Below are positions 45,132 to 60,632 of a DNA stretch of 64,000 bases, piece by piece; the first letter of the stretch is position 1; each line of letters starts with the position of its first letter. The DNA is taken from assembly GCA_002688315.1 (NCBI GenBank), contig NZCN01000002.1:38979-102978 (forward strand). The letters are read 5' to 3'. A program made the translations under genes and the position numbers. Origin of the DNA: Candidatus Woesearchaeota archaeon. GTDB lineage: Archaea; Nanobdellota; Nanobdellia; Woesearchaeales; UBA10216. The notes below the pieces were generated by a model, which was not told the DNA's origin, did not search any database, and was given only the letters and a program-made list of their open reading frames with translations.

Positions 45132-45377
45132 CTATTTCTTCCTGTTCATTCTAAACATCCTAGCTTCTCTTTTGATGTCTACTATGTCAAATATTTTTAT
45201 TTTTGGGATTAATGGAAGTGTCATTAGAACAAATATCATTGCAACCAGATAGCGTGTAAAGAATCCTGAATCTAAAGGATAAAGCTTGAATGCGTGTATT
45301 ATCAGCAATATCAGCAGAAAAACAAGCAAGACAAAGTATAGCGCAATAGCTGTCTTTTTACCTCTTTTTTTTGCCAT
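45132..45377 (-). CDS. Small membrane protein (81 aa, 2 TM) downstream of the processive GT2
   Basis: Hydrophobic ORF with a basic N-terminus 'MAKKRGKKTAIALYFVLLVFLLILLII'. Confidence 0.3.
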   Translation of the reverse strand: MAKKRGKKTAIALYFVLLVFLLILLIIHAFKLYPLDSGFFTRYLVAMIFVLMTLPLIPKIKIFDIVDIKREARMFRMNRKK

Positions 45378-45434
45378 AGTATTTATTTCTTATTGTCTTT
45401 ATTTAAATCTTTCCAAGTAACTAATTGTTGTTGT

Positions 45435-46661
45435 TTACCTGAACGTCATATATAACGAATTTGCCAGTGCTGTTGCTGCCTTTTTTGAAACGGGAAGAAC
45501 ATGTCCAGCTATATTTTTAACCGTTTTTGTTACTCCACCAACAATATCTGGTTGATTTACGTAAGCGTATAAAAGAGCATCATTTATGCTGTTCTTAGTA
45601 TGATTGTAAATGGCGCGTGATCTCGAAGGATATATTGTTGCAGCTCTGTAGAGAGGCATTAAAGGCATTGTTGCAAAAAATTGAGCATCTTTTTTAATTT
45701 CTTTACGTGCCATAACCGCCATGGCGCTAAGGAATGCAAGATCAGTACCGTAATAAAGTGCAAAATATTTCCAACTTTTATCTATGCCACTTGATACGCC
45801 TGTGTATTCAGTGATTGGTAAAGCAGCGAATACTCCCATCTGGATAGCTGTTAATATCCCAAACCTTTTTAATTTCAGTGCTGATAATGCAGTTTTGGCA
45901 AAGAAACCTCGTTCTTTAGTGTATGTTTCTAAAGCACCGAGTTCCCACCTTACTCTTTGCTTATGCAAAGTCATTATATCTTCAGGCGTTTTAGTATTGA
46001 TTACAAATTGAGAAAAATTTGTTAAACCATATCCGTGACGCATGGCCATTGTTGTAAGCTCCATATCATCTCCATTATGCCTGCCGCTGTGCTCTGGAAA
46101 TATTTCTTCCAACACATCCCTTTTCCAAATTCCTCCAGCTCCGGCTATACATCGTGTTTTTCTTTCTTTTCTAGCTATACCATCAAAGGCTCGTCCAAGA
46201 GTATACTCTAGATTTTGAATATAACCAAGCAATGTATCTGTGTTCTCTCCATCAACTCTTAATGCAAAACCACCTAACCCTGAATCAGAATTTAAAGAAT
46301 CAACCATATCATCAAAATGCGCCATGCTTTCTTCAGGAATAGAGGAATCAAAATCAGTGAGTAATACGGTGTCTATATAATCAGGTGCAGTGTCGACAGC
46401 TTTCTCGATAGCTCCGATTTTATTGCCATTCTTAGACATAAACACTGCCTTAAAAGCAGGAGTGTTTCTTTCTACATAGTCTGAAAGCTCTTCTTTTGAG
46501 CCATCTGTTGAGGCATCATCAATTATAATAACATCTAAAAAGTCTTTATAAGTATCTGCTAACCAAGCAAAATAATCCAGCCTACCCTCTAAGTTGGAAC
46601 GACTCTTCTCGTTATATTCAGGAACTACTACTGCTGTTCGTTTCATATTCCAAAAGCCCAT
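45435..46661 (-). CDS. Processive GT2 beta-glycosyltransferase (cellulose/chitin/hyaluronan-synthase-like)
   Basis: 'IIIDDASTDGS', 'LLTDFDSSIPEE' and 'KQRVRWELG' (Q(R/Q)xRW processivity motif). Hydrophobic C-terminal region. Confidence 0.7.
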   Translation of the reverse strand: MGFWNMKRTAVVVPEYNEKSRSNLEGRLDYFAWLADTYKDFLDVIIIDDASTDGSKEELSDYVERNTPAFKAVFMSKNGNKIGAIEKAVDTAPDYIDTVLLTDFDSSIPEESMAHFDDMVDSLNSDSGLGGFALRVDGENTDTLLGYIQNLEYTLGRAFDGIARKERKTRCIAGAGGIWKRDVLEEIFPEHSGRHNGDDMELTTMAMRHGYGLTNFSQFVINTKTPEDIMTLHKQRVRWELGALETYTKERGFFAKTALSALKLKRFGILTAIQMGVFAALPITEYTGVSSGIDKSWKYFALYYGTDLAFLSAMAVMARKEIKKDAQFFATMPLMPLYRAATIYPSRSRAIYNHTKNSINDALLYAYVNQPDIVGGVTKTVKNIAGHVLPVSKKAATALANSLYMTFR

Positions 46662-46742
46662 ATTTCTCCCTTTATAAACCTTTCTATTTGTTACTACTTG
46701 ACAGTTATTATAACTGTAAAGAAACTTCGGAGTTTTTGGGCT

Positions 46743-47867
46743 TTAAACTTCAGAATTAATCAGTTCTCTATAAACTTTCAGGTAACCGCTTATGTTTTTT
46801 TCCAGCAGGAACTTTTTGAGTGGTGCTTTATTGTATTTTTTGTGGTAAACGCGTTCAACTGCGGTTGCTATTTCTTCACTGCTTCTTGGATTTACAAGCA
46901 AATATTTTCCAGATACAACTTCTGGAAGCGATGTTGTGTTTGTTGCAACTACTGGAACGCCTAGCGCGCATGCTTCTGCTGCTGTATACCCAAAACCTTC
47001 TGAAAGGCTCGGTACAACCACACAGTCTGCTGCTTTTATGTGTTTTGGCAGCATTTTATAAGGAACAGGCTCGAGCAGAATTACTTTATTTTCTATTCTT
47101 AATTTTCTTATCAATGCTTTTAGCTTTTTCAGTTTTAGATTGTACTGCTTGTCTTTGCTTAGTATGAACAAGTATTTGAGTTTTGGAACATCTATCAAAG
47201 GTATGGCTTTTATTGCGTATTCGATTCCTTTGCTTGGTCCAGGTCTTCCATAAGTCAGGCAGACAAATTTGTTTTCCAGCTCATAGTCCTGCCTTATTTT
47301 TTTCCCGCTGTGCTTTTTAGGGTCAAAATGCTTGTAATCAACTGCATTGTAAACAGTTAAAGCTTTTCCAGGGCTTTTCCCTATATCTAACAATTGCTTT
47401 CTTGTTGAATTAGAGACTGCTGTGTATTTGTCAAATGGAAGAAGGTAAATTAGTTTTTCAAGGAAATTATGCAGAAACGCTGTTAGCGTGCTCATTGTTG
47501 TGTATTCTTTCCATTTTCCTATCCAGACTTCATGAACTGTTATCAAGCATTTTTTTCTGGAAAGTTTAGAGACAATCCATGCAGGAAACGCTCCATTGAA
47601 AGTTGTTGTGTGGATTATATCTGCTTTCTTTGCCTCTTTTAGTGCTTTTGGTATTGCCAAAAAGCTAAACAAGTACCTGCTTTGCAGGCAGTTAATGCGA
47701 TGAATCTTCACTCCATTAAGCTCTTCATATTTTCTTGTATTCTTAGGTCTATGCGTAATAATTGTAATGTCATGCTTCTTGGCAAGTCCTTCTGCAAGGT
47801 TTTTGAAAACTATCTCTACCCCACCAATATGAGGAAGATAGTTCTCAATAACAAATAAAATTTTCAT
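46743..47867 (-). CDS. GT4 (GT-B) glycosyltransferase
   Basis: 'VVVPSLSEGFGYTAAEACALGVPVVATNTTSLPEVV' is the classic GT4 EX7E block. Confidence 0.7.
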   Translation of the reverse strand: MKILFVIENYLPHIGGVEIVFKNLAEGLAKKHDITIITHRPKNTRKYEELNGVKIHRINCLQSRYLFSFLAIPKALKEAKKADIIHTTTFNGAFPAWIVSKLSRKKCLITVHEVWIGKWKEYTTMSTLTAFLHNFLEKLIYLLPFDKYTAVSNSTRKQLLDIGKSPGKALTVYNAVDYKHFDPKKHSGKKIRQDYELENKFVCLTYGRPGPSKGIEYAIKAIPLIDVPKLKYLFILSKDKQYNLKLKKLKALIRKLRIENKVILLEPVPYKMLPKHIKAADCVVVPSLSEGFGYTAAEACALGVPVVATNTTSLPEVVSGKYLLVNPRSSEEIATAVERVYHKKYNKAPLKKFLLEKNISGYLKVYRELINSEV

Positions 47868-47894
47868 CTTAATCTGAGAAACTTTTAATCCCTT

Positions 47895-49007
47895 TTAAGG
47901 TTTACTGAAAACAACAGCATCATATACAAACTCGCTAAAAACAGTCTCTCCGTTTTCATTAAAATGAAAATCATCTGGATAGTAAACATCGCCATCTTTT
48001 GCTCCCTCAATCAGGGCTTGGCTTGGGTCAAAGAAATTTATTCCCAGCTCTTCTGCGATTTCTCCAAGCTTTTCAGCGTAGGAAGTTATGCTGACATTTT
48101 CAGCTTTCAAATTGTTCTGCTGCAAAAACAAATCAAAGTCTGTTTTCTGGATTTCCAGTTTAGCTGGAACGTAAACAATGCTAAAGCTAACGTTTTTTTC
48201 GTCAAGAGTTTCTTTCATATCCCTGAGAATCAAAGCAGTGTTTCTCCATGCAAGCTCAACAGCTTCATTAGACTCTTTTGTGTAAGGGTCTACTCCAAAA
48301 TTCACGCTTTTCTGGGAAATTTTCGGTTTAGCGCCTACACCTATTAATCTTACAAACCTTCCGAGCTTGTCATTGTGTGCAGCATAAAACCTGACTGTCC
48401 AATGGCACGTGTTTAAGAATCTCGCGCAGTTAAGCAACGTTTTCTTTATAAATGGAATTTTTACAGGTGTTAAATCAATCACTTTGTCATCTTTAAATGC
48501 AAGCAAAAATGTGCTGGCAACGTTTTCAAGGTCATTATTGTAATAAGGCATTATCAATTGGTCTGGGTTGTATTTCAAGGCATTTTCAAGATATTTGAAC
48601 TGGTTTGCTGTTCCCCATGAGCCTGCGCCGTATGAAAGAACTTCGTAGCTTTCTTCAAACTCGTTGTTAAGTTTTTTCTCAACTAACCTTGAAAAGCGTT
48701 TTTCCGGTTCAATGTACAGTCCCATGGCAAACGAATCTCCTAATATGAAAATTCTTTTGTCAGTGCTTCTTTCTATTTGCGGGTTTTGGTAGACAAAGCC
48801 TGCGTCATTTGTTACTACATGCCCAATCCTGGCTCCCTCATGAGGCATATCCAGATTTTCTCCCATTCTATAAACTAGATTTTCATCAGGAATGTATGTT
48901 GCATAGTACGGAAACAAAAAGAAATGGAACAGAACTTCAGTAAAAACTAAAAGTATTGAGACTGTTATCATAAGTAATAATAAGTTTTTCAGGATGTTTT
49001 TAACCAT
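47895..49007 (-). CDS. Membrane-anchored SGNH/GDSL-fold hydrolase
   Basis: N-terminal TM, 'IFILGDSFAMGLY' (block I), 'SYGAGSWG' (block II), 'DDFHFNENGETV' (DxxH block). Confidence 0.6.
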   Translation of the reverse strand: MVKNILKNLLLLMITVSILLVFTEVLFHFFLFPYYATYIPDENLVYRMGENLDMPHEGARIGHVVTNDAGFVYQNPQIERSTDKRIFILGDSFAMGLYIEPEKRFSRLVEKKLNNEFEESYEVLSYGAGSWGTANQFKYLENALKYNPDQLIMPYYNNDLENVASTFLLAFKDDKVIDLTPVKIPFIKKTLLNCARFLNTCHWTVRFYAAHNDKLGRFVRLIGVGAKPKISQKSVNFGVDPYTKESNEAVELAWRNTALILRDMKETLDEKNVSFSIVYVPAKLEIQKTDFDLFLQQNNLKAENVSITSYAEKLGEIAEELGINFFDPSQALIEGAKDGDVYYPDDFHFNENGETVFSEFVYDAVVFSKP

Positions 49008-49088
49008 TCCAATCTAGCACAACTCTTTGTTTTTAAGCTTTACTGATAAAGAGGCTTAGTAGAAAATCTCGCTTCACTCACTTATGCT

Positions 49089-49141
49089 GCGCTTATTTTC
49101 TCTCCTCCCTAACTAAGGTAAGGAGGAGGAAAATAAGCGCG
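49089..49141. terminator. Long near-perfect intergenic inverted repeat (CTCCTCC family hairpin), downstream of 49220..49426
   Basis: 'gcgcttattttctctcctcc-ctaactaaggta-aggaggaggaaaataagcgc': ~20 bp stem. Confidence 0.4.
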
Positions 49142-49219
49142 TGACAATAACTTTCTAGAGAGGAGAAGAAAAGGGAAAACAAGCAAAAGAACAGTAGCGA
49201 GTAGAGTATGACAAATGTT

Positions 49220-49426
49220 CTAGAACAACGCGTAGATGAATGGGCTTAGTCCTGTGCTTTGCCCGAATATTATTAAGCCGCCTACCAAAACAAGCATTAG
49301 TATTGTTGGAAGCAGCCAGAATTTCTTGCGAATTCTCATAAAATTCCATAAGTCTGAAAGAACTGAAAAATGTCTCTGAACGAAACTCTTTTCTTTTTGT
49401 TCAGGCGCTATTGGCTCTGGTTCCAT
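49220..49426 (-). CDS. DUF5989-like small membrane protein (SxtK-like companion of carbamoyltransferases)
   Basis: 'LSDLWNFMRIRKKFWLLPTILMLVLVGGLIIFGQSTGLSPFIYALF'. Directly downstream of the carbamoyltransferase on the same strand. Paralog at 20963..21133. Confidence 0.5.
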   Translation of the reverse strand: MEPEPIAPEQKEKSFVQRHFSVLSDLWNFMRIRKKFWLLPTILMLVLVGGLIIFGQSTGLSPFIYALF

Positions 49427-49464
49427 AAACTCTCCAATTTATTCCTACTTTAAAAATTTTTTCA

Positions 49465-51192
49465 TTAGTCTTTCGCCAGGCTCTCAGAGTCCCACAAGTC
49501 TTTTTTGTTTTCGTTTCTGTCTATTAGGCAGTTTCCAACAACTAAATAGTCAATGCCTGTTCCTGTGAAGCAGCGGTAAGCGTGCTGGGGTGTCATTACT
49601 ATTGGCTCGCCTCTTATGTTAAATGACGTGTTTACCAATACAGGAACTCCGCTGTGTTTCTTGAACTCTTTTATTAGCTTGTAATACATGGGATTTTGTT
49701 TTTCTGTTATTGTTTGCAGCCTTCCGGTTCCGTCAACATGTGTTATTGCAGTGAGTATTAGCCTCATTTCTTCTCTTACAGGATAAACAAATGACATGAA
49801 CGGCACTTCCAAGTCAACTTCAAAGTATTTTTTTGCGTCTTCTAAAGGAACAACTGGCGCAAAAGGCCTGAATTGTTCGCGGTGTTTGACTTTCAAATTT
49901 AATATGTCTTTCATTTTAGGATTGCATGGGTTAGCGAGTATGCTTCTGTTTCCTAATGCACGCTCTCCAAATTCCATTCTTCCTTGGAACCATCCTATTA
50001 CATTGTTTTCCCACAAAAGTTTTGCTACTGTTTTAATCAATTCAGAATTTTTCAGTCTTTTGTATTTTACTTTCTTTTCATTCAGAAAGTTTTCAATGTA
50101 TGCTTCGTCATATCCTGGCCCGAAAAAAGTGTCAGTTATTTCATATCTTTTTTTGCTTCCTAATGCCATGTTCCAGACTGCCATGGCTGCTCCCTGGCTT
50201 GAGCCTGCATCACTTGGCGCTGGAGGCACGTAAACATTTTTGAATTTTGTATTCTTGGTTATTTTTCCGTTTGCAACGCTGTTCAATGAAACTCCTCCTG
50301 ACAAACAAAGGTTTTCTGACCCGCTAATTTTCTGTAAATGGTTGAGCATTTTGAAGTAAACTTCTTCAACTACTTTTTGAACCGAAGCTGCCAGGTCTTT
50401 ATGGTATTGCTCTACTTCAGATTCTTTTTCTCTTTCAGGCCCAAACTCTTCAACGAATTTTTTGCTGTGCATTTTAGCTTTGTAATGAAATACAAAGTAG
50501 CTCATGTCAAGCCTGTAGCTTCCGTCTTCTTTGATGTCTATAAGTTTCTTGACTTTGTCATAATATATTGGCTTTCCGTAAGGAGCAAGCCCCATTACTT
50601 TATACTCGTCATTGTTTACTTTGAATCCAAGATAACCTGTTACTGTGCTGTAGAGCAATCCCAATGAGTGTGGAAAATTTATTTCTTTAAGCAGTTTTAT
50701 GTTGTTGTCTTTTCCTGTTCCAAGAGTTGTTGTTGCCCATTCTCCAACACCGTCTGTTGTCATTATTGCTGCTTCTTTGAATGGTGAGGCAAAGAATGAG
50801 CCTGCTGCATGCGTTAAGTGGTGCTCAACATAGTAAATCTCTCCTCTGTAGCCGCATTTTTTGCTCATCAAGGAAGGTATTCTTAATTTTTCCATGGCCC
50901 ATGAAGGCAAAGCTTGAACAAAAGTTAATAATGATCTTGGAAACATTTCTAAGTGTGAGTTAAGAAGCCTTTCAAACTTCAGCATAGGTTTTTCGTAAAA
51001 CGCAACATAACTTACGTCTTTTATTGTAATTCCTGCTTCCCGCAGGCAGTATTTTATTGAGTTTATTGGAAAGTCTGTGTCATGCTTTTTCCTGCTCCAT
51101 CTTTCTTCCTGAGCTGCAGCTATTAGCTTTCCGTCTTTTATTATTGATGCTGAAGAGTCGTGGTAAAAGCAGGCAACTCCAAGTATGTACAT
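49465..51192 (-). CDS. Carbamoyltransferase, NodU/CmcH family (second copy)
   Basis: 'MYILGVACFYHDSSASIIKDGKLIAAAQEERWSRKKHDTDFP', 575 aa. Confidence 0.85.
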   Translation of the reverse strand: MYILGVACFYHDSSASIIKDGKLIAAAQEERWSRKKHDTDFPINSIKYCLREAGITIKDVSYVAFYEKPMLKFERLLNSHLEMFPRSLLTFVQALPSWAMEKLRIPSLMSKKCGYRGEIYYVEHHLTHAAGSFFASPFKEAAIMTTDGVGEWATTTLGTGKDNNIKLLKEINFPHSLGLLYSTVTGYLGFKVNNDEYKVMGLAPYGKPIYYDKVKKLIDIKEDGSYRLDMSYFVFHYKAKMHSKKFVEEFGPEREKESEVEQYHKDLAASVQKVVEEVYFKMLNHLQKISGSENLCLSGGVSLNSVANGKITKNTKFKNVYVPPAPSDAGSSQGAAMAVWNMALGSKKRYEITDTFFGPGYDEAYIENFLNEKKVKYKRLKNSELIKTVAKLLWENNVIGWFQGRMEFGERALGNRSILANPCNPKMKDILNLKVKHREQFRPFAPVVPLEDAKKYFEVDLEVPFMSFVYPVREEMRLILTAITHVDGTGRLQTITEKQNPMYYKLIKEFKKHSGVPVLVNTSFNIRGEPIVMTPQHAYRCFTGTGIDYLVVGNCLIDRNENKKDLWDSESLAKD

Positions 51193-51428
51193 TAGAAACT
51201 CCTCTTAAAATCTTCCAAGCTTATTTCCTTTCTTTCTGCCCAGTAGCTTTCTTTTTCAGGCTCAAGTTTTAGCTCAAGAAAATGTTTTCTGAAAGTTTTT
51301 GCAATCAAAGCAGAAAATCCTATTCCTAGAATGTAAACTACTGAAAGCAATACTCTGCTGTTAAATTCCCCTATTTTTTTCCCTACTTTGAGGAAGCCGT
51401 TCCAGAAGCTTTTGATTATTTTAATCAT
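51192..51428 (-). CDS. SxtJ-like small membrane protein (78 aa); stop overlaps the carbamoyltransferase start
   Basis: 'MIKIIKSFWNGFLKVGKKIGEFNSRVLLSVVYILGIGFSALIAK...'. Gene order SxtJ-like, carbamoyltransferase, DUF5989-like resembles the sxtI/J/K-type trio seen with carbamoyltransferases. Confidence 0.4.
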   Translation of the reverse strand: MIKIIKSFWNGFLKVGKKIGEFNSRVLLSVVYILGIGFSALIAKTFRKHFLELKLEPEKESYWAERKEISLEDFKRSF

Positions 51429-51429
51429 G

Positions 51430-51774
51430 CTAATCTTTCTTTTTCTTTTTTTCTTTTTCTATTGCCATGTTTCTTACTAGTTCTTCAACTCTTTTGTCTG
51501 TATTTCTGGCAACACGATAAGTGTAGAATGTGGTTGCTATCAGAAACATGAATCCCAGTATTATGAATAAGTCTAGTTTTCTTCCGAGGTTAAGGCTTCT
51601 TACTATTGGGTCAAGCACTTGCGGAAATACTGATAGGGTTGCAAACAAAATTGCAAACAATGCCCAAAAGCTCCATTCTGTCAAGGTAAATTCTTTTTTC
51701 TTGTAGTACAGAAATGACATGTAAAGTATGAATGCGCTAAATACTAATCCAAATACTTGTATTCCCAATGGCAT
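51430..51774 (-). CDS. Small membrane protein (114 aa, 3-4 TM), DUF2304-like GT2 companion
   Basis: Hydrophobic ORF with a K-rich C-terminus, immediately downstream of the GT2 at 51827..52486. Confidence 0.35.
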   Translation of the reverse strand: MPLGIQVFGLVFSAFILYMSFLYYKKKEFTLTEWSFWALFAILFATLSVFPQVLDPIVRSLNLGRKLDLFIILGFMFLIATTFYTYRVARNTDKRVEELVRNMAIEKEKKKKKD

Positions 51775-51826
51775 TTTTTGTTATCCCTCTGTTTTTTTGA
51801 AATTACCGCTGTTTTTTAAATTTATT

Positions 51827-52486
51827 TCATTTGCTTAGCTTCCACCATAGCATTCTCATGGCTATGTTTATTCCGTCAAACACAGTAGTTCCTTTATATT
51901 TGTCATTGTAAACAGTTTCTATTGGAAGTTGTTTGAATTTTAATTTGTGTTTTCCTGTTTTTGCAGCTATCTCAGATTCTATATTGTAGTCGCTTGATAT
52001 CAAGCCAAGCTTTTTGTAAGCATCTGTGGTCATTGCTTTGAAACCGCATTGAGTGTCTTTTATTCTTATGTTAAACAGGATGCTCAGAAGCGTATTCAGT
52101 ACAAAGTTTCCTATTTTTTTAATTAAAGGCATGTTCATGCTTTTGAGGTTTCTGTAAGTGAAAACAACATCAATGTTTTTAAGCTCATTTAGCAGTCTTG
52201 GAAGGTCTTTTGGGTTGTGCTGTCCGTCGCTGTCAATGAAAATAATTGTGTCTGCTCCATGTTTGCCTGCGTATTCTATGCCTGTTTTTAGTGCAGCTCC
52301 TTTCCCGAGGTTTATTGGATGTCTTAAAACGATTACTTTTGTTTTCTTTGCTTCTTGGTATGTTTTGTCTTTTGAGCCGTCATCTACTACAACTATGTTT
52401 TTGCTGTATTTTTTTATTTCATTCACTACTTTTGCTATGTGCTTCTCTTCGTTAAACGCAGGTATTATTACAAACGGTTTTTTCAT
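51827..52486 (-). CDS. GT2 glycosyltransferase, Dpm1-like catalytic subunit (no TM)
   Basis: 'FVIIPAFNEEKHI', 'VVDDGSKDKT' and 'FIDSDGQHNPKDL'. 10 nt downstream of aglB. Confidence 0.75.
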   Translation of the reverse strand: MKKPFVIIPAFNEEKHIAKVVNEIKKYSKNIVVVDDGSKDKTYQEAKKTKVIVLRHPINLGKGAALKTGIEYAGKHGADTIIFIDSDGQHNPKDLPRLLNELKNIDVVFTYRNLKSMNMPLIKKIGNFVLNTLLSILFNIRIKDTQCGFKAMTTDAYKKLGLISSDYNIESEIAAKTGKHKLKFKQLPIETVYNDKYKGTTVFDGINIAMRMLWWKLSK

Positions 52487-52496
52487 TTTCTTACCT

Positions 52497-55400
52497 TTAC
52501 TTTATTTCCGCAATTTTAACTTTGAAATAAAGCGTTGTGTTGAAAAATACGTGGCTTGGATCAGTATATCCTTGCTCTGGCTCAACAGTTATTATTTTTT
52601 CTTCATTTAGCTTTGTTCCTAAGATTCCTTTTTCAAATCCAGGTATTACTGAGTTTAATCCTGTAGTGAATGCCATTGAATCATGCGGGTATTCGTCAAT
52701 GCCAGTTTCCTTAGTTACTCCTTTACCTCTGAAATCATTTATTGAGCTGTCAAACACTGTTCCATCCTCTAAATATCCTATATAGTTAACCATGACTTCA
52801 TCGCCTAAACTTACTTCGGTTTTTTCTTCTACTGGTTTAAGTTCGTTCATTATGTTTTGCTGCTTTCCTTCCCAGTCAACTTGCCATACCCATATGTTGG
52901 TTCCTGTAAAACTCTGCTGTCTTGTTAAAAGTTTGAAATATTTTAAGCTGTGTCCTTGCATGTAAAACATTTTTGCAAACATTCCATCAACTAATTCAGG
53001 GCTTCCTACAATCCTGTTATAGTTTCCTCCTGATGGAATGAGCAGTATTCCTAAATTTTGAGGCACTGTATTGTTATCAAACGTTTTCTTAATAACTTCT
53101 CCTTCAGCAGTAGGGTAGCTTATTGAAATTGGGTGCTGGTTTCCTTGTGGTGTTGGATACCATGCATTGTAGTCTGCAGGGTCAACAATTAATCCGTCTC
53201 CGCATTTTATTAGTTCATCAACAATGCTGCATCCATGCACTCCTCCTGAAAAACCGTTCCATGGTCCTATCCATGCATCTGCAGCTCCGTCATTTGAAAT
53301 TCCCTGCATTTGTTCATAAATGCTGTTTGCTTCTTCCTCGCTCATTTCATGTGTTTCTTTCATGTATTGCACTGCTTCTTCTCTTGGCTTTCCTCCAACT
53401 GCTTTCCATATGTCTGCTTTGGTGTAGTCCCAGGCTCCAAAGTGTCCCCATACTCCGGATTTGCCTATCATGTCTTCAGAAGCAATTACAAATGATTCAG
53501 GCGGGTTGCAATGTGTTAATTCCAAAATTTCATTTGCTTCCTGCTCACTCAATTCTTCTTCCAAAAGAACTTGTTTTGCTCCATCTCTGTCAAGCATTAT
53601 TATCTTTTTGGTAAGCTTAACAGCATAAACATTATCTTTTCCTGATTTTTTCTCTAATTCATGAGTTCCAAAATGCGCTCCGCAGTTAAGCATTCTTAAT
53701 ATGCCTATTGCTTCTCGCTCGTCGCTTGTGCTGAAAAATCTGCCTACCCAATGCGCTTGAGGAAATGCTTGAGTTGTTCCGTCAAAAGTTACAGCTCTGT
53801 CAGCCAAGGATTTGAAATGGTGTCCAAAGTCCCACCACGAGGTTATTATTGCGTCTTCTTTTGAGTTTTCTTTTATGCTGTTTAATGAGTTAAACCATGC
53901 GTCGTTTATTAGAGGAACATCATTGTTTACTACGTTTCGCGCAGCGTTAACTACGTCGCTGTTAAAAGTTGGTCCTGGAAACATCATGAATAACATGGCG
54001 AAGACAATAGTCATTACAATCAATTTGTTAAATTTGAATTGCTTGCTTGTCCATGCTCCCACATATCCTGTGATGAGGCCAAAGACAATGCCAAATGCTA
54101 TGCTGAATGCAGGCACTAAAAGAAGAACAAATCTAATTCCTTTTGTTACAGCATACAAAGTTGCTATGAACCATATTGTAAGCACAACCGCATAAAACAA
54201 ATCTCTTACTATTTTTTCATTGTCTCTTTCCTTTTTGTAGGCTTCAAATGCCGCTCTTGCTATTATGAGGATTATTCCAAAAACTGCAATGTAAAAAAGT
54301 GAGCTTCCAATCTGGTTTATTGCTTGCTGCGCTGTTCCTTCGTTAAGTTCTGCTACTGTTCTCAGAACGTTTGGAGCTGCACTTCCAACCACAGGTGTTT
54401 TTAGCGTCCTAAAGCCTATGGATGCTACAGGAGTTAATAAGAAAGTGCTCAACCCAGATGTTATGGTCATAGTAATGCCAGTAACTGCAAAGTACGTTGC
54501 TGTAATAGTGATTATTTTTCTGGAAACACTATTCTTAAGACTGTTTAACCCGTTTTTTATCACTGTGCCTTTTCCAGTAAAGGCTTGGTAAAGCACAAAC
54601 AATCCGAAAGTTGCTGCTGCTGAAGCTAAAATAAAGTCAAATATCCACCACCAGCCTCCCCACGTAAGGCTGTACAAAGTTGTTGCAATTCCTGAAAGAG
54701 CTGCAAACACGATTTTCAGCATTATTCTTTTTGCAGAAACTGCTTCAATGAAAAGCCACAGCACAAGCACTGCAAAAAATATGACTATTGCATCTGAATC
54801 CCCATGCCCGAACTGGGTTCTGTTGATTAAAGCTGCATGCACTCCCACCATTGTTGCTGCAAAAAATGCAGCTACGTTTCCAGCTATTCTTCTTGTTAGC
54901 AAGAACACAATTAATGTGGAAAGCGCTGATATGAAAACAGGATAAAACATTAATGCTCTTTGCAGCTCAAGGCCTGGCTTGAATATTTTTGCAACGTTGT
55001 AAAACAAAACTATGGATTGTGGATAAAAAGTATCTTTAGGAGCAATCATTCTTCCTACAGGCGCAAATTGGTGGTTATCCCATTGCATGCCATCTCTGAT
55101 TTCATCTCCTACGTGCCCTTTCTCAACTATGTTTCTGGAATATCTCCACCAGTAATAAGGGTCAATGTCAGGCATGTAGTTTTTTCCAGTTTCATCTTGG
55201 TAGAATGTTTTGAATTGCTGCGAGGCAATTTCAATCTGTTGCTGCAGGTTTATTGTTTGCCCTGCAAACTGGCTTGTTTTGAAAGTGTATGTTCCTGCCC
55301 TCTTTGCTTTATTAAGTTCTTCCGCAGCAAGCTGCTGCCTGTTGCTGTCCGGCAGATTCGGATATGTTTGGCTTACAAAACTGGCAATGTCATTGTTTAT

Positions 55401-55913
55401 TGTTTGATCAATGCTGTTTCTTGCCCAATTATCTGTAAAACCTAACTCTCCTGATTGCATTCTTAAGTTGAATCCAATTCCAACGCTAACAACTATTCCT
55501 AGAATCAAAAACAAAGTCATGTGATATTTCTTCAGAAAATTCATAACAGAACTGATATCGAAGTCTTCATCACCTTTGCTTTCTTTAGCTCCGCTTTTTG
55601 CTCCCTTAAAAATTCCTTTTATGCCGGCAATTGCTTTTCCAACATCTATTTCATCTTTGCTGTCATCGCTTTTACTGGTTTCGTGTTCAATTTTTTTATC
55701 ATTTTCTTTAACATCTTCCGCTTTATGTTCGCTTTTAGTTTCATTTTTGCTATCAACAGTAGTTGCAGAAATAGGTTCTTTTCCTTCAGAACTTTTTTTT
55801 CTCTTAAACAAGCCTGTTATCTTTCCAAAGTCAATCTCAACATCTTCATCTTTTTTATCTTCAACGACTTTTATGTTATCACCATAATCTTTCTTATCCT
55901 GAGATTCAGCCAT
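52497..55913 (-). CDS. aglB: Oligosaccharyltransferase AglB/STT3 with an N-terminal K/E/D-rich extension and a C-terminal FKBP-type PPIase domain fused in frame
   Basis: 1138-aa continuous ORF. ~13 TM helices, then 'ITSWWDFGHHF' (the WWDYG-type OST catalytic motif). The last ~110 aa, 'GDEVMVNYIGYLEDGTVFDSS...GLNSVIPGFEKGILG', align with the standalone FKBP at 13877..14305. The first ~135 aa are Lys/Glu/Asp-rich. Confidence 0.8.
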   Translation of the reverse strand: MAESQDKKDYGDNIKVVEDKKDEDVEIDFGKITGLFKRKKSSEGKEPISATTVDSKNETKSEHKAEDVKENDKKIEHETSKSDDSKDEIDVGKAIAGIKGIFKGAKSGAKESKGDEDFDISSVMNFLKKYHMTLFLILGIVVSVGIGFNLRMQSGELGFTDNWARNSIDQTINNDIASFVSQTYPNLPDSNRQQLAAEELNKAKRAGTYTFKTSQFAGQTINLQQQIEIASQQFKTFYQDETGKNYMPDIDPYYWWRYSRNIVEKGHVGDEIRDGMQWDNHQFAPVGRMIAPKDTFYPQSIVLFYNVAKIFKPGLELQRALMFYPVFISALSTLIVFLLTRRIAGNVAAFFAATMVGVHAALINRTQFGHGDSDAIVIFFAVLVLWLFIEAVSAKRIMLKIVFAALSGIATTLYSLTWGGWWWIFDFILASAAATFGLFVLYQAFTGKGTVIKNGLNSLKNSVSRKIITITATYFAVTGITMTITSGLSTFLLTPVASIGFRTLKTPVVGSAAPNVLRTVAELNEGTAQQAINQIGSSLFYIAVFGIILIIARAAFEAYKKERDNEKIVRDLFYAVVLTIWFIATLYAVTKGIRFVLLLVPAFSIAFGIVFGLITGYVGAWTSKQFKFNKLIVMTIVFAMLFMMFPGPTFNSDVVNAARNVVNNDVPLINDAWFNSLNSIKENSKEDAIITSWWDFGHHFKSLADRAVTFDGTTQAFPQAHWVGRFFSTSDEREAIGILRMLNCGAHFGTHELEKKSGKDNVYAVKLTKKIIMLDRDGAKQVLLEEELSEQEANEILELTHCNPPESFVIASEDMIGKSGVWGHFGAWDYTKADIWKAVGGKPREEAVQYMKETHEMSEEEANSIYEQMQGISNDGAADAWIGPWNGFSGGVHGCSIVDELIKCGDGLIVDPADYNAWYPTPQGNQHPISISYPTAEGEVIKKTFDNNTVPQNLGILLIPSGGNYNRIVGSPELVDGMFAKMFYMQGHSLKYFKLLTRQQSFTGTNIWVWQVDWEGKQQNIMNELKPVEEKTEVSLGDEVMVNYIGYLEDGTVFDSSINDFRGKGVTKETGIDEYPHDSMAFTTGLNSVIPGFEKGILGTKLNEEKIITVEPEQGYTDPSHVFFNTTLYFKVKIAEIK

Positions 55914-55932
55914 AAATTGAGAACATATGAAT

Positions 55933-55944
55933 TATTTATAAAGT
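55933..55944 (-). promoter_or_regulatory. Putative TATA box (archaeal) ~25-30 nt upstream of the aglB ATG
   Basis: Minus-strand 'ctttataaataattcatatgttctcaattt-ATG'. Confidence 0.3.
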
Positions 55945-55956
55945 TATTGCCCAAAA

Positions 55957-57069
55957 TCAAAACAACAATTTTCTTGACAAAAGCAGCAGTTTTGGCTCTT
56001 GCATCAGCAGTTTGAGCGCAAACTTTCTTGGTTCGTCTCTGTCAAAGGTTTCAAGGATTTTTTTATTTTTATCGCTGCTGAAAATTCTTATCAATTTGTT
56101 ATATTCGTTATCAGAAAACTTGTTCATTATCTTCCTCATCATTAGTGAAAGCCATAAATCTCTGCCAATTTTTGCTTTCCATAGCTTTTTGTAATCTTTT
56201 CCTGTTTCAATTGCTTCAGTAACAGCAGTTGCAGCTATCAGGCTCTGATTTATGCCGCCCAGTGTTGTTGACTTAATCATTGTTGCAGCATCTCCTGCAA
56301 GCAAAATTTTTCCTTTTTGTGTTTTCGCTTTTGGATTGTGAAGCGGAATAGGCCCTGCCTGGTGCGCTATTATCTTTTTCTTGTAGTCTTTTCCCACTGC
56401 TCTTGCCATAAACTCGTCAAAATATATGCTGGCTTGGTTAGAAACAGCAATCCCTGCCCTCACTATTTTATTATTTTCAGGAACAGTCCATGCTATTCCT
56501 TTCTCTGAAGGATAGAACTCTATTATATTGTCATTTTCTAAGTTCGCAGTAACTTGCAGCCCAACATAGAATTTTCTGTTTTCAAACAAGCCAGAAGATT
56601 TTGCTACTTCGCTTCTCGGTCCGTCTGCTCCAATAAGCCAGTCGCTTTCAACTTTGATAACATTTCCCAGGTTCTTGTTTTTGATGCTTGCTGTAATTTT
56701 TCCATTGCTTTGCTCTAATCCAATAAAGCGGTGGTTAACATAATACTTTGCTCCTGCTTCTTTTGCAAGCCCTGCAATGTGCTGGTCCATTCTTGCTCTG
56801 TCAACAATAATGTCGTTCTTTAGTTTTACTTCAACAGAATTTCCATCAGGAGCTATTATGCGGGCTTTTTCTATTCTATTAATAATAATGTTTTCCGGCA
56901 GTCTTATTTGTTTTGAAAGAACATCTCCTGTTATTACGCCTGTGCAGGCCCATGGTATTCCAATCACAGGCTGTTCGTCATAAACCGCAACATCATAGCC
57001 TTTTTTCGCAAGCAAGTAAGCGCTATAATTGCCTGCAGGCCCTGCTCCTATTATAGAGACTTTAGTCAT
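55957..57069 (-). CDS. Geranylgeranyl reductase-family FAD-dependent oxidoreductase (possible dolichol/polyprenol reductase)
   Basis: 'VSIIGAGPAGNYSAYLLAKKGYDVAVYDEQ' (FAD Rossmann of GGR family), 370 aa. Immediately upstream of aglB on the same strand. Confidence 0.75.
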   Translation of the reverse strand: MTKVSIIGAGPAGNYSAYLLAKKGYDVAVYDEQPVIGIPWACTGVITGDVLSKQIRLPENIIINRIEKARIIAPDGNSVEVKLKNDIIVDRARMDQHIAGLAKEAGAKYYVNHRFIGLEQSNGKITASIKNKNLGNVIKVESDWLIGADGPRSEVAKSSGLFENRKFYVGLQVTANLENDNIIEFYPSEKGIAWTVPENNKIVRAGIAVSNQASIYFDEFMARAVGKDYKKKIIAHQAGPIPLHNPKAKTQKGKILLAGDAATMIKSTTLGGINQSLIAATAVTEAIETGKDYKKLWKAKIGRDLWLSLMMRKIMNKFSDNEYNKLIRIFSSDKNKKILETFDRDEPRKFALKLLMQEPKLLLLSRKLLF

Positions 57070-57178
57070 TGCACTTAGGAAACTTCAGCAGCTTTATATT
57101 GATTTACGTTTTCAACACAAAACTCTTAATCACCCATCAAGCATTCTTTTACCCATTATCCAATAGTAACAATAGAAA

Positions 57179-57192
57179 CTTTTATATATGGG
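57179..57192 (+). promoter_or_regulatory. TATA-box-like element 'TTTTATATATGGG' upstream of the surface-protein gene cluster
   Basis: A/T-rich 'cttttatatatggg' ~55 nt upstream of the probable ATG at 57245. Nearly identical to the element at 60677. Confidence 0.35.
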
Positions 57193-57226
57193 AGTAAGAC
57201 TTCCAAATTAACCTGTTAATTAAACT

Positions 57227-58696
57227 TTGCTTGGAGATTCAAAAATGCCAAATCTGACTGATATCTTAAACAGAACTGAGGATATTGTTAAAAACACAGT
57301 CACTTTTGTTCCAACTGTTGCTGATAGATTTCTTGTTCAAAATGTAGTTAAAGGCAGTCAGAATCTTCCTGCCAGCGTTAAACAGTTCAATAGAGACCAT
57401 ATATTAAGAAACTCTCTCACTGATCGTTTGAAAGATTCAAATTCCAAGACCAGAAAAGCATTAAGCACTGTTTTGGGTTATGGTGTTCCTGTTGCTGCCT
57501 TAGCTGTTGCAGACAAGGTGTTGGGCACAGACACTGCTCCTATCAGGTCAGCTATTGACGAGATTGGGAAGTGGTATGGAAACAGCTGGCAAATCGCTAC
57601 TCCAATCACTGCTGGCGGCGCTGCCATGCTTGCTGCAACTCAAAGAAACGTAAGAGGCGCTGTTTCCACTGGCGCTAATTCTGCTGGAAGCTTTGTTTAC
57701 GATAACGCTTTACTGCCTGTTGCTCATGGTTTTAGAGGTATTTATAGAAATGCACGCGATCACCCGTTTATATGGGGCTACAGTGTATTTGGAGCAGCTC
57801 TTGGTTTAACCGTTGTTGCTGGTGCTGCTTATGCATTATTAACAAAAGACGATGCTTCTGAAGAAGCTCAAGAACCTATTGTTGCTACCGCACCTGTTAC
57901 TGAGCCTATTGATGGAAGCGTAGTCTTTAATTATTTAGAACAATATTTAGATGAGCATCTTAATGCTGCTAAGGTTTTCTTTAAAGCTTACTCGCCTGTT
58001 AGTCTTACTACAGACGATTTGAGAAGCATTGCTGATGTTATCAGTCAAATGCCAACTGCTGTTCCTGCTGATAACTTTGATGCAGGACGAGTAGTAAGAT
58101 TGATAGATGGTATTCTTGCAAGTAAAGGTTATGTTGACCAAGCTAGTTTAGATGCTGCTGTTGTAGGTGAGGTTGTAAAGAGTCTTACCGCTACTCCAAC
58201 TTATACTCATGTTCCTCCTGCTACTGAGACTCCTGTTCCTCCTACTCCTGTTCCAGCTACTCCTGTTCCAGCTACTCCTGTTCCTCCTGCTACTGGAACT
58301 CCTGTTCCTCCTGCTACTGAGACTCCTGTTCCTCCAGGCATTGCAGCATTGCAAGATGCTTTCGTGTATGGATTTTCAAAACAGCTAACAAGTGATATGT
58401 ATGACAGTAATCCTAATAGATTTTTAGACGCATTTGGTGTTGTTCCAGGCGCACGTAGCCAAATACTTAACTGGTTTGATGGAGATCTTGCTAATGCAGA
58501 AGCAGTAACTATTGATGGTGTGGCTATGGTAATTAATGGTGTTGATAACATATCAAAGATTTATTTAAGTGAACAAGGAAGAGGAGCTGAATTTTCTGAT
58601 GTTGTAGCACAAACTGCTAAGAACTTCACATTAGATTTTATGAGAGACAATCCAGAAAGAATTGAGGACGTTGTTGTAATTGAAGCAGGTAATTAA
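57227..58696 (+). CDS. Membrane-anchored protein with cytoplasmic N-domain, single TM, Pro/Thr-rich repeat linker and extracytoplasmic C-domain (probable ATG start at 57245)
   Basis: No N-terminal signal peptide. Internal TM 'FIWGYSVFGAALGLTVVAGAAYALL'. Repeat linker 'PATETPVPPTPVPATPVPATPVPPATGTPVPPATETPVPP'. GC is visibly higher than in the neighbouring genes. Confidence 0.5.
   Translation: MLGDSKMPNLTDILNRTEDIVKNTVTFVPTVADRFLVQNVVKGSQNLPASVKQFNRDHILRNSLTDRLKDSNSKTRKALSTVLGYGVPVAALAVADKVLGTDTAPIRSAIDEIGKWYGNSWQIATPITAGGAAMLAATQRNVRGAVSTGANSAGSFVYDNALLPVAHGFRGIYRNARDHPFIWGYSVFGAALGLTVVAGAAYALLTKDDASEEAQEPIVATAPVTEPIDGSVVFNYLEQYLDEHLNAAKVFFKAYSPVSLTTDDLRSIADVISQMPTAVPADNFDAGRVVRLIDGILASKGYVDQASLDAAVVGEVVKSLTATPTYTHVPPATETPVPPTPVPATPVPATPVPPATGTPVPPATETPVPPGIAALQDAFVYGFSKQLTSDMYDSNPNRFLDAFGVVPGARSQILNWFDGDLANAEAVTIDGVAMVINGVDNISKIYLSEQGRGAEFSDVVAQTAKNFTLDFMRDNPERIEDVVVIEAGN
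58209..58336 (+). repeat. In-frame tandem ~15-nt DNA repeats (ACTCCTGTTCC(A/T)(G/C)CT) encoding the Pro/Thr linker
   Basis: 'gttcctcctgctactgagactcctgttcctcctactcctgttccagctactcctgttccagctactcctgttcctcctgctactgg...'. Confidence 0.7.
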
Positions 58697-58711: not shown

Positions 58712-60172
58712 ATGAGATTTTTCCTAATAATTTTTCTTTCAGCATTCTTGTTGACAGTTTTATCTACTTCTGTTAGTGCTTTTTGCGGAGATAACAAATG
58801 TATTGATAGTGAGCAAAGCTGGTGTAATCTTGATTGTTCTGATCCTGATCCAGTTGCTGAGTGTGGTAATGATGAATGTGAAGTTGGAGAAGAATCTTGG
58901 TGCACGTTGGATTGTCATGTGATTGATACTCCAGAACAAAAATCATGCACTACAAATACAAACACTTATGCTCCAAGTGATGAGCCTTACGAATTTAATG
59001 CTGATAAATATGAAACAGAGTTTAGCGGAAGTGTTAAAACTGTATGCCCTGCTCTTAATAGCAAAGCTTTTTTGATTTGTAATGATGAAGGTGAATTTGT
59101 TCTTGACGATTGCACTACTCCTTTTTACAGATGCACAACTCTTGGTTTTACTGAAGTAGCTCAAGTTTGTAATGTACCAGGCACTGCAAGCAATGATGCA
59201 GGCAGTGTTGTTAGCGAATATAGTGATTTGAATATAATTCCTCTTTACTGCAGTGATGAAGGTAAATTTGACGATATTATATTAACTTGTGGTGAAGGAG
59301 AAAACATACATCGTACTTTTTGCGAAATGGAAAAATCTTCTGTGCACGAACCTATTGTGACTTCAGAGCCTGAATGCAAAGATACAAGAATCACAATTAT
59401 AGATGCTCCACCTGCTCCTGCGCCAAGTCCTGCTCCTGATCCTAGTCCAACTCCGACTCCAGATCCAACTCCTGTTCCAAACAGCAATCCAACTATAACT
59501 GATTTTAATGTTCCTCTTACCGCTGATAAAGGTAGTCAGATAACAATCTCTGTTACTGCTACTGATTCAGACGGTACTATTGATAGGATAGAAATCTTGC
59601 AGGACTCTGATATTATAAAGAGTGAATCATGCGGCAATATTGCTACGTGCGCAAAATCGTTTGTAGTTCAAGTTCCGAATGCTTTCAGCACTGCTTACAA
59701 GTTCATTGCAAGAGCTTTTGACAATTTAGGCGCTTCTGCAACTAGAGAATCAGAAGAAGGTACAACAAACCCAGAGGTAATCCCTGATACTCCAGAAACA
59801 CCTGAACCAGAGCCTGATGAAGCTTTGGATGATGTTAAAGTAAAGCACTCAGGAGATTTGTTTGTTTCAACTGTTGCTCCTGGTGAAAGTTGTGTTTCTC
59901 CTGGTGCTGAGACTTTCTTATACGCGTCATTAAAGAATAACGGAGATAAAACAGTCAAGAATGTTAAGATAATTGCAGTAGTCTACGACCTTTCTTTAAG
60001 GGCTGTTTCAAACAATTTTAATATAAGAAGAGATGAGTCTGTTTCAAGATTCCTTAACTTTGATGTTCCTGAAGATGCAGAGGAAGGTCTTTACTACATG
60101 AAAATTTCTGTAAATTCCCAGAAAGACTCTATTGTTAAGTACAGAGTTTTCGAAGTTAATAACGTATGCTAA
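58712..60172 (+). CDS. Secreted cysteine-rich surface protein: signal peptide, two CGDxxC...E...WC.LDC repeats, P/T/S linker, Ig-like domain, C-terminal CARDB-like module
   Basis: Signal 'MRFFLIIFLSAFLLTVLSTSVSA'. 'CGDNKCIDSEQSWCNLDCS' and 'CGNDECEVGEESWCTLDCH'. 'PAPAPSPAPDPSPTPTPDPTPVP'. C-terminal 'FDVPEDAEEGLYYMKISVNSQKDSIVKYRVFEV' shared with the next two ORFs. 'aggtga' ribosome-binding site 8 nt upstream. Confidence 0.55.
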   Translation: MRFFLIIFLSAFLLTVLSTSVSAFCGDNKCIDSEQSWCNLDCSDPDPVAECGNDECEVGEESWCTLDCHVIDTPEQKSCTTNTNTYAPSDEPYEFNADKYETEFSGSVKTVCPALNSKAFLICNDEGEFVLDDCTTPFYRCTTLGFTEVAQVCNVPGTASNDAGSVVSEYSDLNIIPLYCSDEGKFDDIILTCGEGENIHRTFCEMEKSSVHEPIVTSEPECKDTRITIIDAPPAPAPSPAPDPSPTPTPDPTPVPNSNPTITDFNVPLTADKGSQITISVTATDSDGTIDRIEILQDSDIIKSESCGNIATCAKSFVVQVPNAFSTAYKFIARAFDNLGASATRESEEGTTNPEVIPDTPETPEPEPDEALDDVKVKHSGDLFVSTVAPGESCVSPGAETFLYASLKNNGDKTVKNVKIIAVVYDLSLRAVSNNFNIRRDESVSRFLNFDVPEDAEEGLYYMKISVNSQKDSIVKYRVFEVNNVC

Positions 60173-60254: not shown

Positions 60255-60632
60255 TTGATGAAAAAACTATTTATTTTCGCTATTGCTTTAATGATGTTAT
60301 TTTCACTTTCTTCAGTTGCTTTTGCTGAAAAGCAGCACAAAAACATTCTTTTTAACAGTGTTTTTATCATGGAAGAAAAGCCATTAATCACTTCTTTATC
60401 ACTGGAAAACCGTAATAAAGATACTGATTTAAGGAATGGCAGAGTTGTTGTTTCAATCCCTGAGCTTGGCTTAAGAGCATCAGGAAGCGTTGATATTGAC
60501 GAAGATAGCAGAAAAACAAAGAGAGTAACCTTACCAATTCCTGAAGACGTTGTTGAAGGCGAGTATTATGTGCGCATTGTAGTGTCTAATAAAGACGGAA
60601 AACAAGTAAAGTACAGATTAATCACAATATAA
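60255..60632 (+). CDS. Small secreted protein (125 aa) consisting of one CARDB-like module
   Basis: Signal peptide 'MMKKLFIFAIALMMLFSLSSVAFA'. 'VSIPELGLRASG...LPIPEDVVEGEYYVRIVVSNKDGKQVKYRLITI' matches the module of the flanking genes. Confidence 0.5.
   Translation: MMKKLFIFAIALMMLFSLSSVAFAEKQHKNILFNSVFIMEEKPLITSLSLENRNKDTDLRNGRVVVSIPELGLRASGSVDIDEDSRKTKRVTLPIPEDVVEGEYYVRIVVSNKDGKQVKYRLITI

Follow-up and report, generated by a model that had tools for sequence, protein, structure and literature searches.

In Haloferax, the first sugar of the N-glycan is added on dolichol phosphate (Dol-P) by AglJ, which, like AglD and PfDPMS, carries a C-terminal membrane segment of its own. Genes resembling this and other described systems were found around the aglB gene of a Candidatus Woesearchaeota archaeon, in a stretch of 64,000 nucleotides of contig NZCN01000002.1 (hereafter the window). 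There, the oligosaccharyltransferase AglB is encoded on the minus strand together with a flavoprotein of the geranylgeranyl reductase (GGR) family, a short glycosyltransferase of family 2 (GT2), a small DUF2304 membrane protein and an O-carbamoyltransferase. The explanation put forward here, which is given somewhat better than an even chance of being right, has two layers: a conserved N-glycosylation core (GGR homolog, AglB, GT2 and DUF2304) and a mobile cassette resembling the sxtI-J-K-L genes of saxitoxin biosynthesis.

The closest described relatives of the GT2 and its neighbour are GacI/GacJ of Streptococcus pyogenes and PpgS/Rv3632 of Mycobacterium tuberculosis. DUF2304 is the family of GacJ (113 aa, three transmembrane (TM) helices) and Rv3632. 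GacJ co-purifies with the GT2 GacI as a complex, brings the Km for undecaprenyl phosphate (Und-P) down from 18.7 to 1.1 µM and raises Vmax several hundred-fold, and natural GT2–DUF2304 fusions exist (bioRxiv 10.1101/180810). Rv3632 stimulates PpgS, and each characterised pair supplies a separate GT-C glycosyltransferase, GacL for GacI/GacJ and Rv3779 for PpgS/Rv3632 (bioRxiv 10.1101/180810; PMC9671496). For the flavoprotein, the described relative is HVO_1799 of Haloferax volcanii, a general GGR whose deletion abolishes the saturation of both dolichol phosphate and diether phospholipids, while reduction at the alpha position persists (PMC10821996). For the carbamoyltransferase, saxitoxin gene tables list consecutively sxtI (carbamoyltransferase), sxtJ and sxtK (small, of unknown function) and sxtL (GDSL lipase) (PMC2684587, PMC2679770).

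The window AglB is identical to CMO88_01150, a protein of a marine Candidatus Woesearchaeota metagenome-assembled genome (TARA data). Its surroundings were compared in ten AglB-centred loci, with AglB 35–66% identical to that of the window, and in 61 evaluable GGR-centred loci from a metagenome scan. AglB is followed by a GT2 of 218–225 aa and then by DUF2304 in nine of the ten AglB-centred loci. Of the nine loci in which the upstream side could be judged, six have a GGR homolog immediately upstream of AglB and one has it at a distance of two genes. Seen from the GGR homolog, AglB lies directly downstream in 27 of the 61 loci, nearby in 7 and nowhere in the flanks in 27, and on every contig of sufficient length AglB is followed by GT2 and DUF2304. 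The next gene after DUF2304 is usually a GT4 (L002, L003, L086, L087 and L172), and the divergent upstream genes in the AglB-centred loci encode secreted Ig-like surface proteins. Since the core order is kept in genomes with AglB only 35–66% identical, the arrangement exceeds chance. The core is a conserved Woesearchaeota/DPANN N-glycosylation module, and the conserved adjacency supports the original prediction, an earlier reading of the same DNA, in its view that the GGR homolog and aglB are functionally linked. This link is strong in the window's lineage and is not universal.

The same comparison of aglB neighbourhoods gave a different result for the carbamoylation cassette. While the four core genes recur, none of the nine other AglB-centred loci, not even the closest one (L172, 66% AglB identity), has the cassette at this site. 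A genome scan with the carbamoyltransferase returned 482 relatives, of which the best 80 loci were examined, with iterative profile searches on those 80. Their archaeal part comprises Woesearchaeota, Aenigmatarchaeota, Pacearchaeota, Nanoarchaeota and Altiarchaeota, and their bacterial part many CPR/Patescibacteria, as well as Anaerolineae, Nitrospirae, Planctomycetia and others. A homolog of p78, the 78-aa protein encoded next to the carbamoyltransferase in the window, is present beside the enzyme in 70 of the 80 loci, nearly always just upstream; 62 of the loci contain DUF5989, and 49 contain at least one SGNH gene. The cassette also occurs in many bacterial loci (CPR and other) with no AglB homolog found in the flanks, and it lies there among GT4, GT2 and SGNH genes. 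The cassette is an accessory insertion and the carbamoyltransferase belongs to it, not to the aglB unit in which the original prediction had placed it. In four further DPANN loci with differing gene orders (L016, L018, L019 and L041), p78 and the carbamoyltransferase lie 0–2.6 kb from AglB, with DUF2304 also adjacent in L016, L018 and L041, and in L016 the stop of the carbamoyltransferase gene overlaps the start of AglB.

These observations bear on the glycan that the cassette would modify. It may act on a different surface glycoconjugate, such as a Wzx-dependent polysaccharide, a glycolipid or an O-glycan, and stand in the aglB run only as glycan genes cluster. This possibility is a serious one, rated a little short of even. 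It would suit the glycan island of about 60 kb that makes up the window, in which a second carbamoyltransferase and further DUF5989-like and SGNH copies are found, and it would also suit the bacterial settings of the cassette and its absence from this site in relatives. Its weak point is the recurrence of p78 and the carbamoyltransferase by AglB and DUF2304 in the four further DPANN genomes, in differing gene orders and, in L016, with overlapping reading frames. Conversely, the original prediction had read a single seven-gene operon (dolichol reductase, oligosaccharyltransferase, DPM-like pair and carbamoyltransferase) that yields an O-carbamoylated N-glycan. The tight spacing on one strand (gaps of −1 to 52 nt), the conserved GGR–AglB adjacency and the same four loci with p78 and the carbamoyltransferase abutting AglB agree with such an operon. 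It is nevertheless improbable, given the nine AglB-centred loci that lack the cassette here, the many CPR and other bacterial loci that have it with no AglB homolog found in their flanks, the position of its fourth gene beyond a 212-nt gap with a hairpin, a Haloferax precedent that is a general GGR, and a DUF2304 protein with no Pfam match to DPM2 or DPM3.

An O-carbamoylated N-glycan, which had been predicted from the gene order, does not follow from it and is one possibility among several in a glycan island of about 60 kb. Taken as a hypothesis, an O-carbamoylated N-glycan or lipid-linked precursor is reasonable, with roughly one chance in three. Carbamoyl groups are not mentioned in a 2024 review of archaeal N-glycosylation, and no such modification has been reported for archaeal N-glycans.

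The two-layer explanation attributes four genes to the cassette (p78, carbamoyltransferase, DUF5989 and SGNH), the last of which had been missed before. By family, the carbamoyltransferase is a complete O-carbamoyltransferase, with Carbam_trans_N at 282.7 bits and Carbam_trans_C at 246.5 bits (Pfam); its residues 10–559 align to 7xb6 with 350 bits, and GdmN, NovN and TobZ also align over the full length. It has no TM segment. NodU and NolO belong to the same enzyme family and act on sugars of envelope or signal glycans, but the window enzyme scores only 163 against the NodU equivalog, whose cut-off is 1000. The Pseudomonas carbamoyltransferase of the lipopolysaccharide-core heptose is another member of the family that O-carbamoylates a glycoconjugate.

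The label 'SxtJ-like' given to p78 was the only one of the original gene identities not backed directly by Pfam or NCBIfam. The window protein matches SxtJ (PF19588) below threshold (E = 0.091; 14 bits, the cut-off being 24.4; profile positions 52–89 of 99). Among its 70 relatives collected with jackhmmer, nine match SxtJ at E ≤ 0.01, the best of them at E = 2e-5, and SxtJ is the only family that recurs, so that the label is supported transitively. DUF5989, in turn, was confirmed in the window by the proposed profile search (71.9 bits against a Pfam cut-off of 27), and no paper on this family was found in the literature. Both p78 and DUF5989 have one TM segment. The SGNH protein matches ALGX (32.4 bits, cut-off 26.5) and Lipase_GDSL_2 (32.9 bits) in Pfam and has one N-terminal TM segment. 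Block I (GDS) and the block V His, and with them the catalytic Ser and His, are conserved across 61 relatives, G90 and H348 without exception and D91 and S92 in at least 90%. A PDB sequence search with this protein gave no match at E ≤ 1.

As judged from these sequence matches, the window cassette resembles sxtI-J-K-L in its composition: both comprise an O-carbamoyltransferase, a small protein of the SxtJ family, another small one of DUF5989 size in the place of SxtK, and an enzyme of the GDSL/SGNH type. It differs in the lack of toxin genes, in its glycosyltransferase context, in the order J-I-K-L and in the SxtJ-like protein, which is half the length of SxtJ and sub-threshold. DUF5989 was likened to SxtK by position and size. 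The GC content of the cassette (0.34–0.40) against that of its neighbours (0.34–0.39) gives no compositional sign of recent foreign origin.

Within the core, the 219-aa GT2 is a Glycos_transf_2 protein (98 bits in Pfam) with no TM segment. Its top NCBIfam models are PpgS (128.2 bits, cut-off 370), matched over profile positions 3–217 of 226, and then AglJ (104 bits, cut-off 325), both under cut-off. All of its PDB matches are polyprenyl-phosphate glycosyltransferases (PfDPMS, ArnC and GtrB). The alignment to PfDPMS (5mlz) covers residues 24–250 and ends at 250, which is presumably about where the membrane domain of PfDPMS starts. Thus, the window protein shares with AglJ, AglD and PfDPMS the GT2 catalytic fold and the proposed reaction of Dol-P with a nucleotide sugar, but its catalytic domain is without a membrane segment and a separate DUF2304 gene stands behind it. 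The DUF2304 protein has three hydrophobic segments and passed the profile search that had been suggested (75.5 bits against a Pfam cut-off of 25.5).

This arrangement corresponds to that of GacI/GacJ and PpgS/Rv3632, in which a short soluble GT2 is followed by a DUF2304 protein of about 113 aa with three TM segments and a GT-C enzyme is encoded nearby; PpgS is, in addition, the top model of the window GT2 over the whole 226-aa profile, although with a score below its cut-off. The window differs in being archaeal and dolichol-based, and its neighbouring GT-C is AglB instead of a polysaccharide-modifying enzyme. The pair had been likened to DPM synthases with catalytic and anchor subunits. The part of this comparison that holds is a short GT2 working with a small membrane protein, for which GacI/GacJ and PpgS/Rv3632 are homologous precedents, while the relation to DPM1/DPM2/DPM3, where a soluble catalytic GT2 depends on small membrane subunits, is an analogy only, since Pfam gave DUF2304 alone for the window protein and no DPM2 or DPM3 match. 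GT2–DUF2304 fusions were also sought in 86 matches among close relatives, and none was found, every DUF2304 being stand-alone.

Since the constant GT-C neighbour of the pair is AglB, an AglJ-like priming step on Dol-P would fit. Alternatively, the pair could make a Dol-P-monosaccharide donor for other outer-face GT-C enzymes, such as the PMT_2 proteins of the island, without initiating the N-glycan. The products of both characterised systems do feed a separate GT-C transferase, and three GT-C genes of the PMT_2 type and one GtrA-like gene lie in the window. This role is considered rather unlikely, as the pair stays by AglB, itself a GT-C, in nine of the ten AglB-centred loci, including one (L004) whose flanks contain no other Pfam-annotated glycosyltransferase, and as the PMT_2 genes are not conserved neighbours.

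The GGR homolog belongs to the GG-red-SF superfamily (TIGR02032, 169.6 bits against an NCBIfam cut-off of 158.8), and its top PDB match is 3oz2 (E = 8e-22). It remains under three curated equivalogs of digeranylgeranylglycerophospholipid (DGGGPL) reductases (74.9 against 780, 67.2 against 580 and 45.8 against 700); these models are lineage-specific, and the low scores lower, without excluding, a lipid-reductase activity. In a clade alignment of 117 members, Cys42 is kept in 112 and LxGD is invariant. The cavity motif PxxYxWxFP, as defined in PMC10821996, reads IxWxVP across the clade, with Tyr replaced by Ile in 88 and Phe by Val in 110 of the 117 members, and both replacements are present in the window protein, in which the full motif was not found. 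The altered motif marks a distinct GGR subfamily and says nothing of the substrate. A second GGR paralog in the same genomes was sought, and the 120 matches listed were all orthologs.

In the original prediction, placement of the homolog in lipid-reductase clades was the test of a dolichol role. The homolog passes the superfamily cut-off and not the DGGGPL equivalogs, but lipid against dolichol reductase is a false dichotomy, because HVO_1799 serves both lipid classes. For the same reason, the Haloferax enzyme does not stand as precedent for a dedicated dolichol reductase. HVO_1799 and the window protein are both GGR-superfamily flavoproteins, and the former saturates the omega isoprene of dolichol phosphate; it is a general GGR, whereas the DPANN clade has the IxWxVP cavity motif and is frequently aglB-adjacent. 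HVO_1799 is not known to be linked to aglB.

The homolog might, likewise, be a general reductase of isoprenoid lipids, involved in saturation of archaeol or digeranylgeranylglyceryl phosphate and possibly of scavenged lipids, and its position by aglB would then have no dedicated dolichol meaning. Membership in GG-red-SF with the catalytic Cys and FAD motifs kept, the 27 of 61 clade loci with no AglB nearby and the double role of the single H. volcanii GGR all suit this alternative, which is credible but falls clearly below an even chance. Where AglB is missing, the neighbours are a prepilin peptidase, eRF1 or a NOG1-type GTPase; lipid-biosynthesis genes were sought in these loci and only housekeeping genes were found. 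On the other hand, AglB adjacency persists at 35–57% AglB identity and in other gene orders (L041 and L153), and the cavity-shaping Tyr and Phe are replaced by Ile and Val. In addition, lipid pathways are commonly incomplete in DPANN cluster 2 genomes (PMC7414124), so that a reductase retained beside aglB suggests a role on the carrier lipid. A dolichol role of the homolog is thus plausible but unproven.

AglB itself was identified by Pfam STT3, which covers residues 232–643 with 148.3 bits (cut-off 24.5). Relative to human STT3A, its catalytic motifs are DIDP in the DPY region, GDSD for DNE and WWDFG for WWDYG. By sequence, its nearest solved structures are eukaryotic STT3A/STT3B and bacterial PglB, and no archaeal AglB is named among the PDB chains matching it at E ≤ 0.001. 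A crude hydropathy scan gave nine clear segments, in a family with about 13 TM helices, the last one at 631–649. Since no hydrophobic segment lies beyond 649, residues 650–1138, with the C-terminal FKBP domain included, share one membrane side with the catalytic globular domain, which by analogy with solved oligosaccharyltransferases would be the external side.

The FKBP domain (FKBP_C, 52.8 bits against a Pfam cut-off of 21.1, residues 1032–1134) has the archaeal FKBP 1ix5 as its top PDB match. Among 101 AglB homologs, P0090 and P0030 included, FKBP_C is present in 41 and a parvulin-type peptidyl-prolyl isomerase (PPIase) in 3, with the parvulin domain at the same C-terminal site as FKBP (residues ~1000–1155, Pfam). 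The two fusions look like independent events in related DPANN lineages, and two unrelated isomerase families at one site of AglB speak for glycosylation and folding being functionally coupled. No paper linking AglB with FKBP or another PPIase was found in the literature.

Positions of the genes and features are collected in Table 1. The open reading frames listed for the window and the public gene calls of the same contig agree on gene lengths in the minus-strand run, and the seven genes named in the original prediction are all present on this strand. Its span of 51192–57069 contains only five of them, with the carbamoyltransferase and DUF5989 falling outside, and the gaps, which it gave as 0–45 nt, were measured as 43, 10, 52, 1, −1 and 38 nt in order from GGR to DUF5989, the negative value being a 1-nt overlap of the p78 stop with the carbamoyltransferase start. 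Past a gap of 212 nt (49008–49219) come SGNH, GT4 and GT2 genes, which makes a same-strand run of ten (45435–57069). What had been observed is therefore real and partly confirmed, with imprecise coordinates and an incomplete gene list, and the interpretation as a whole is partly supported.

Table 1. Genes and features of the minus-strand run (window coordinates).
Feature	Position	Strand	Remarks
GGR-family FAD flavoprotein, candidate polyprenyl/dolichyl reductase	55957..57069	-	370 aa
AglB/STT3 oligosaccharyltransferase with C-terminal FKBP	52497..55913	-	1138 aa
FKBP-type prolyl isomerase domain (AglB residues 1032-1134)	52512..52820	-	
Short soluble GT2, putative polyprenyl-phosphate sugar synthase of GacI/PpgS/AglJ/DPMS type	51827..52486	-	219 aa
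DUF2304 membrane protein, GacJ/Rv3632-type GT2 partner (predicted)	51430..51774	-	114 aa, 3 TM
Single-TM protein p78, divergent short SxtJ-family member (probable), first cassette gene	51192..51428	-	78 aa
NodU/CmcH/TobZ-type O-carbamoyltransferase	49465..51192	-	575 aa
DUF5989, small protein in SxtK position	49220..49426	-	68 aa, 1 TM
Hairpin, 22-bp near-perfect, possible terminator or processing site	49089..49140	-	within DUF5989-SGNH gap
SGNH/GDSL (AlgX-like) enzyme, N-terminally anchored, fourth cassette gene, SxtL position	47895..49007	-	370 aa
GT4 glycosyltransferase	46743..47867	-	374 aa; Pfam Glycos_transf_1 + Glyco_transf_4
GT2, last gene of same-strand run	45435..46661	-	408 aa; Pfam Glycos_transf_2 + Glyco_trans_2_3

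The short gaps are consistent with a single operon. AT-rich TATA-like strings were seen by eye about 25–30 nt upstream of the GGR, AglB and DUF5989 starts, a weak signal in a genome of 36–39% GC. Scans for bacterial-type promoters (29 sites against 31.5 expected) and terminators (15 against 10.3 expected) were uninformative, the bacterial models being unsuited to an archaeon. In the 212-nt gap, a T-rich tract precedes the hairpin, and the gap folds with −59 kcal/mol (z = −3.4), a value reached by none of 200 shuffled sequences. The hairpin could end a transcript. Its sequence is unique in the window, and a repeated mobile-element end was dropped as its identity because of this single copy. An Rfam scan of 45000–58000 gave no match, the hairpin included. 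The 408-aa GT2 that closes the run shows weak PgaC and NodC similarity (NCBIfam), and its position is not conserved among relatives.

Nearly all of the window (1–64000) is one glycan-biosynthesis island of about 60 kb, with many GT2 and GT4 genes, three PMT_2-type GT-C genes, a PTPS_related membrane protein, a Wzx-like flippase, GtrA-like and LPG_synthase_TM genes, sugar-nucleotide epimerases and dehydratases, an aminotransferase and methyltransferases. A second NodU-family carbamoyltransferase (556 aa, 14405–16075, plus strand) is divergent from a stand-alone FKBP of 142 aa (13877–14305, minus strand) and has a GT2 behind it, a group that echoes the association of carbamoyltransferase, FKBP and glycosylation of the main locus. 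A second DUF5989-like small reading frame (~20963–21133, plus strand) lies by a second AlgX-like SGNH gene (21252–22370, minus strand), a third SGNH gene extends over ~63430 to the window end and runs off it, and an MBOAT acyltransferase is encoded at 16897–18315 (minus strand). Convergent to the ten-gene run are a B12-binding radical SAM protein (HpnJ/BchE-like, 42251–43744, plus strand) and a CrtI/UDP-galactopyranose-mutase-like flavoprotein (PRK07208, 43737–45131, plus strand). The two recur together by the aglB cluster in L002 and the flavoprotein alone in L003, while in L170 a related amine-oxidase-family flavoprotein directly follows GGR. The island also contains HicA/HicB-like and ParE-like toxin-antitoxin pairs (~41726–42168 and ~27869–28364; weak Pfam matches on the public gene calls). 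Three signal-peptide surface proteins (58712–60172, 60255–60632 and 60749–62071, plus strand) are transcribed divergently from the aglB cluster.

Four observations weigh against the two-layer explanation. First, the loci of the GGR clade with no AglB in their flanks amount to about 44% (27/61), so that GGR is not obligatorily tied to AglB. Second, the sub-cut-off PpgS (128 against 370) and AglJ (104 against 325) scores do not point to a particular sugar or an exact role for the GT2. Third, not one N-x-S/T sequon occurs in the three signal-peptide proteins, although their composition would lead to about 9.3; this would be odd if they were the main AglB substrates. Finally, the window also encodes three GT-C enzymes of the PMT_2 type, a Wzx-like flippase, an MBOAT system and a further carbamoyltransferase, so that the Dol-P-sugar and the carbamoyl group could serve other pathways. 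Sequon counts were 88 observed against 103 expected window-wide and 28 against 58 in the homologous neighbours of six other loci.

In the proposed mechanism, the soluble GT2 and the three-TM DUF2304 protein would together act as a polyprenyl(dolichyl)-phosphate sugar synthase associated with the cytoplasmic face of the membrane, loading a hexose or N-acetylhexosamine onto Dol-P in an AglJ-like first step, and the neighbouring GT4 may extend the Dol-P-linked sugar. AglB would move the glycan to Asn outside the cell, where its external FKBP domain could isomerise prolyl bonds of the emerging substrate. The GGR-family flavoprotein is predicted to saturate isoprene units of the polyprenyl carrier, whichever bonds these may be, and possibly other isoprenoid lipids. 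The mobile sxtI-J-K-L-like cassette would have been inserted between DUF2304 and GT4 in the window's lineage. Its cytoplasmic carbamoyltransferase, probably membrane-held via the two single-TM proteins p78 and DUF5989, would O-carbamoylate a sugar of a lipid-linked or nascent surface glycan, and the externally anchored SGNH enzyme may then trim or re-position an acyl group.

Known families make up the conserved core, the GacI/GacJ-type pair by AglB, the fusions of AglB with a PPIase and the sxtIJKL-like cassette, and the combination of these parts in DPANN archaea appears undescribed. A wider picture, which is speculative and as a whole quite unlikely, would be that of a stripped-down N-glycosylation in DPANN, with an oligosaccharyltransferase-PPIase fusion (FKBP or, independently, parvulin) coupling transfer and folding on the outside of the cell, with GacI/GacJ-type priming and, in some lineages, with O-carbamoylation by an ancient membrane-tethered SxtJ-carbamoyltransferase-DUF5989-SGNH cassette shared with CPR and later recruited by cyanobacteria for saxitoxin.

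N-glycosylation in DPANN archaea is essentially unstudied. If the proposed reading is true, the genes for GGR, AglB-PPIase, GT2 and DUF2304 would provide a compact, testable model of the pathway, with a candidate enzyme for dolichol saturation in archaea, in which the reductase of the alpha position has yet to be found. That AglB is fused at one external site to members of two unrelated PPIase families would be a genetic argument that glycosylation and folding are coupled extracellularly, in a manner similar to the eukaryotic endoplasmic reticulum. In addition, the sxtIJKL-like cassette amid glycan genes of ultra-small archaea and bacteria would point to widespread, so far unseen O-carbamoylated surface glycans, and its distribution would suggest an origin for the carbamoylation genes of saxitoxin.

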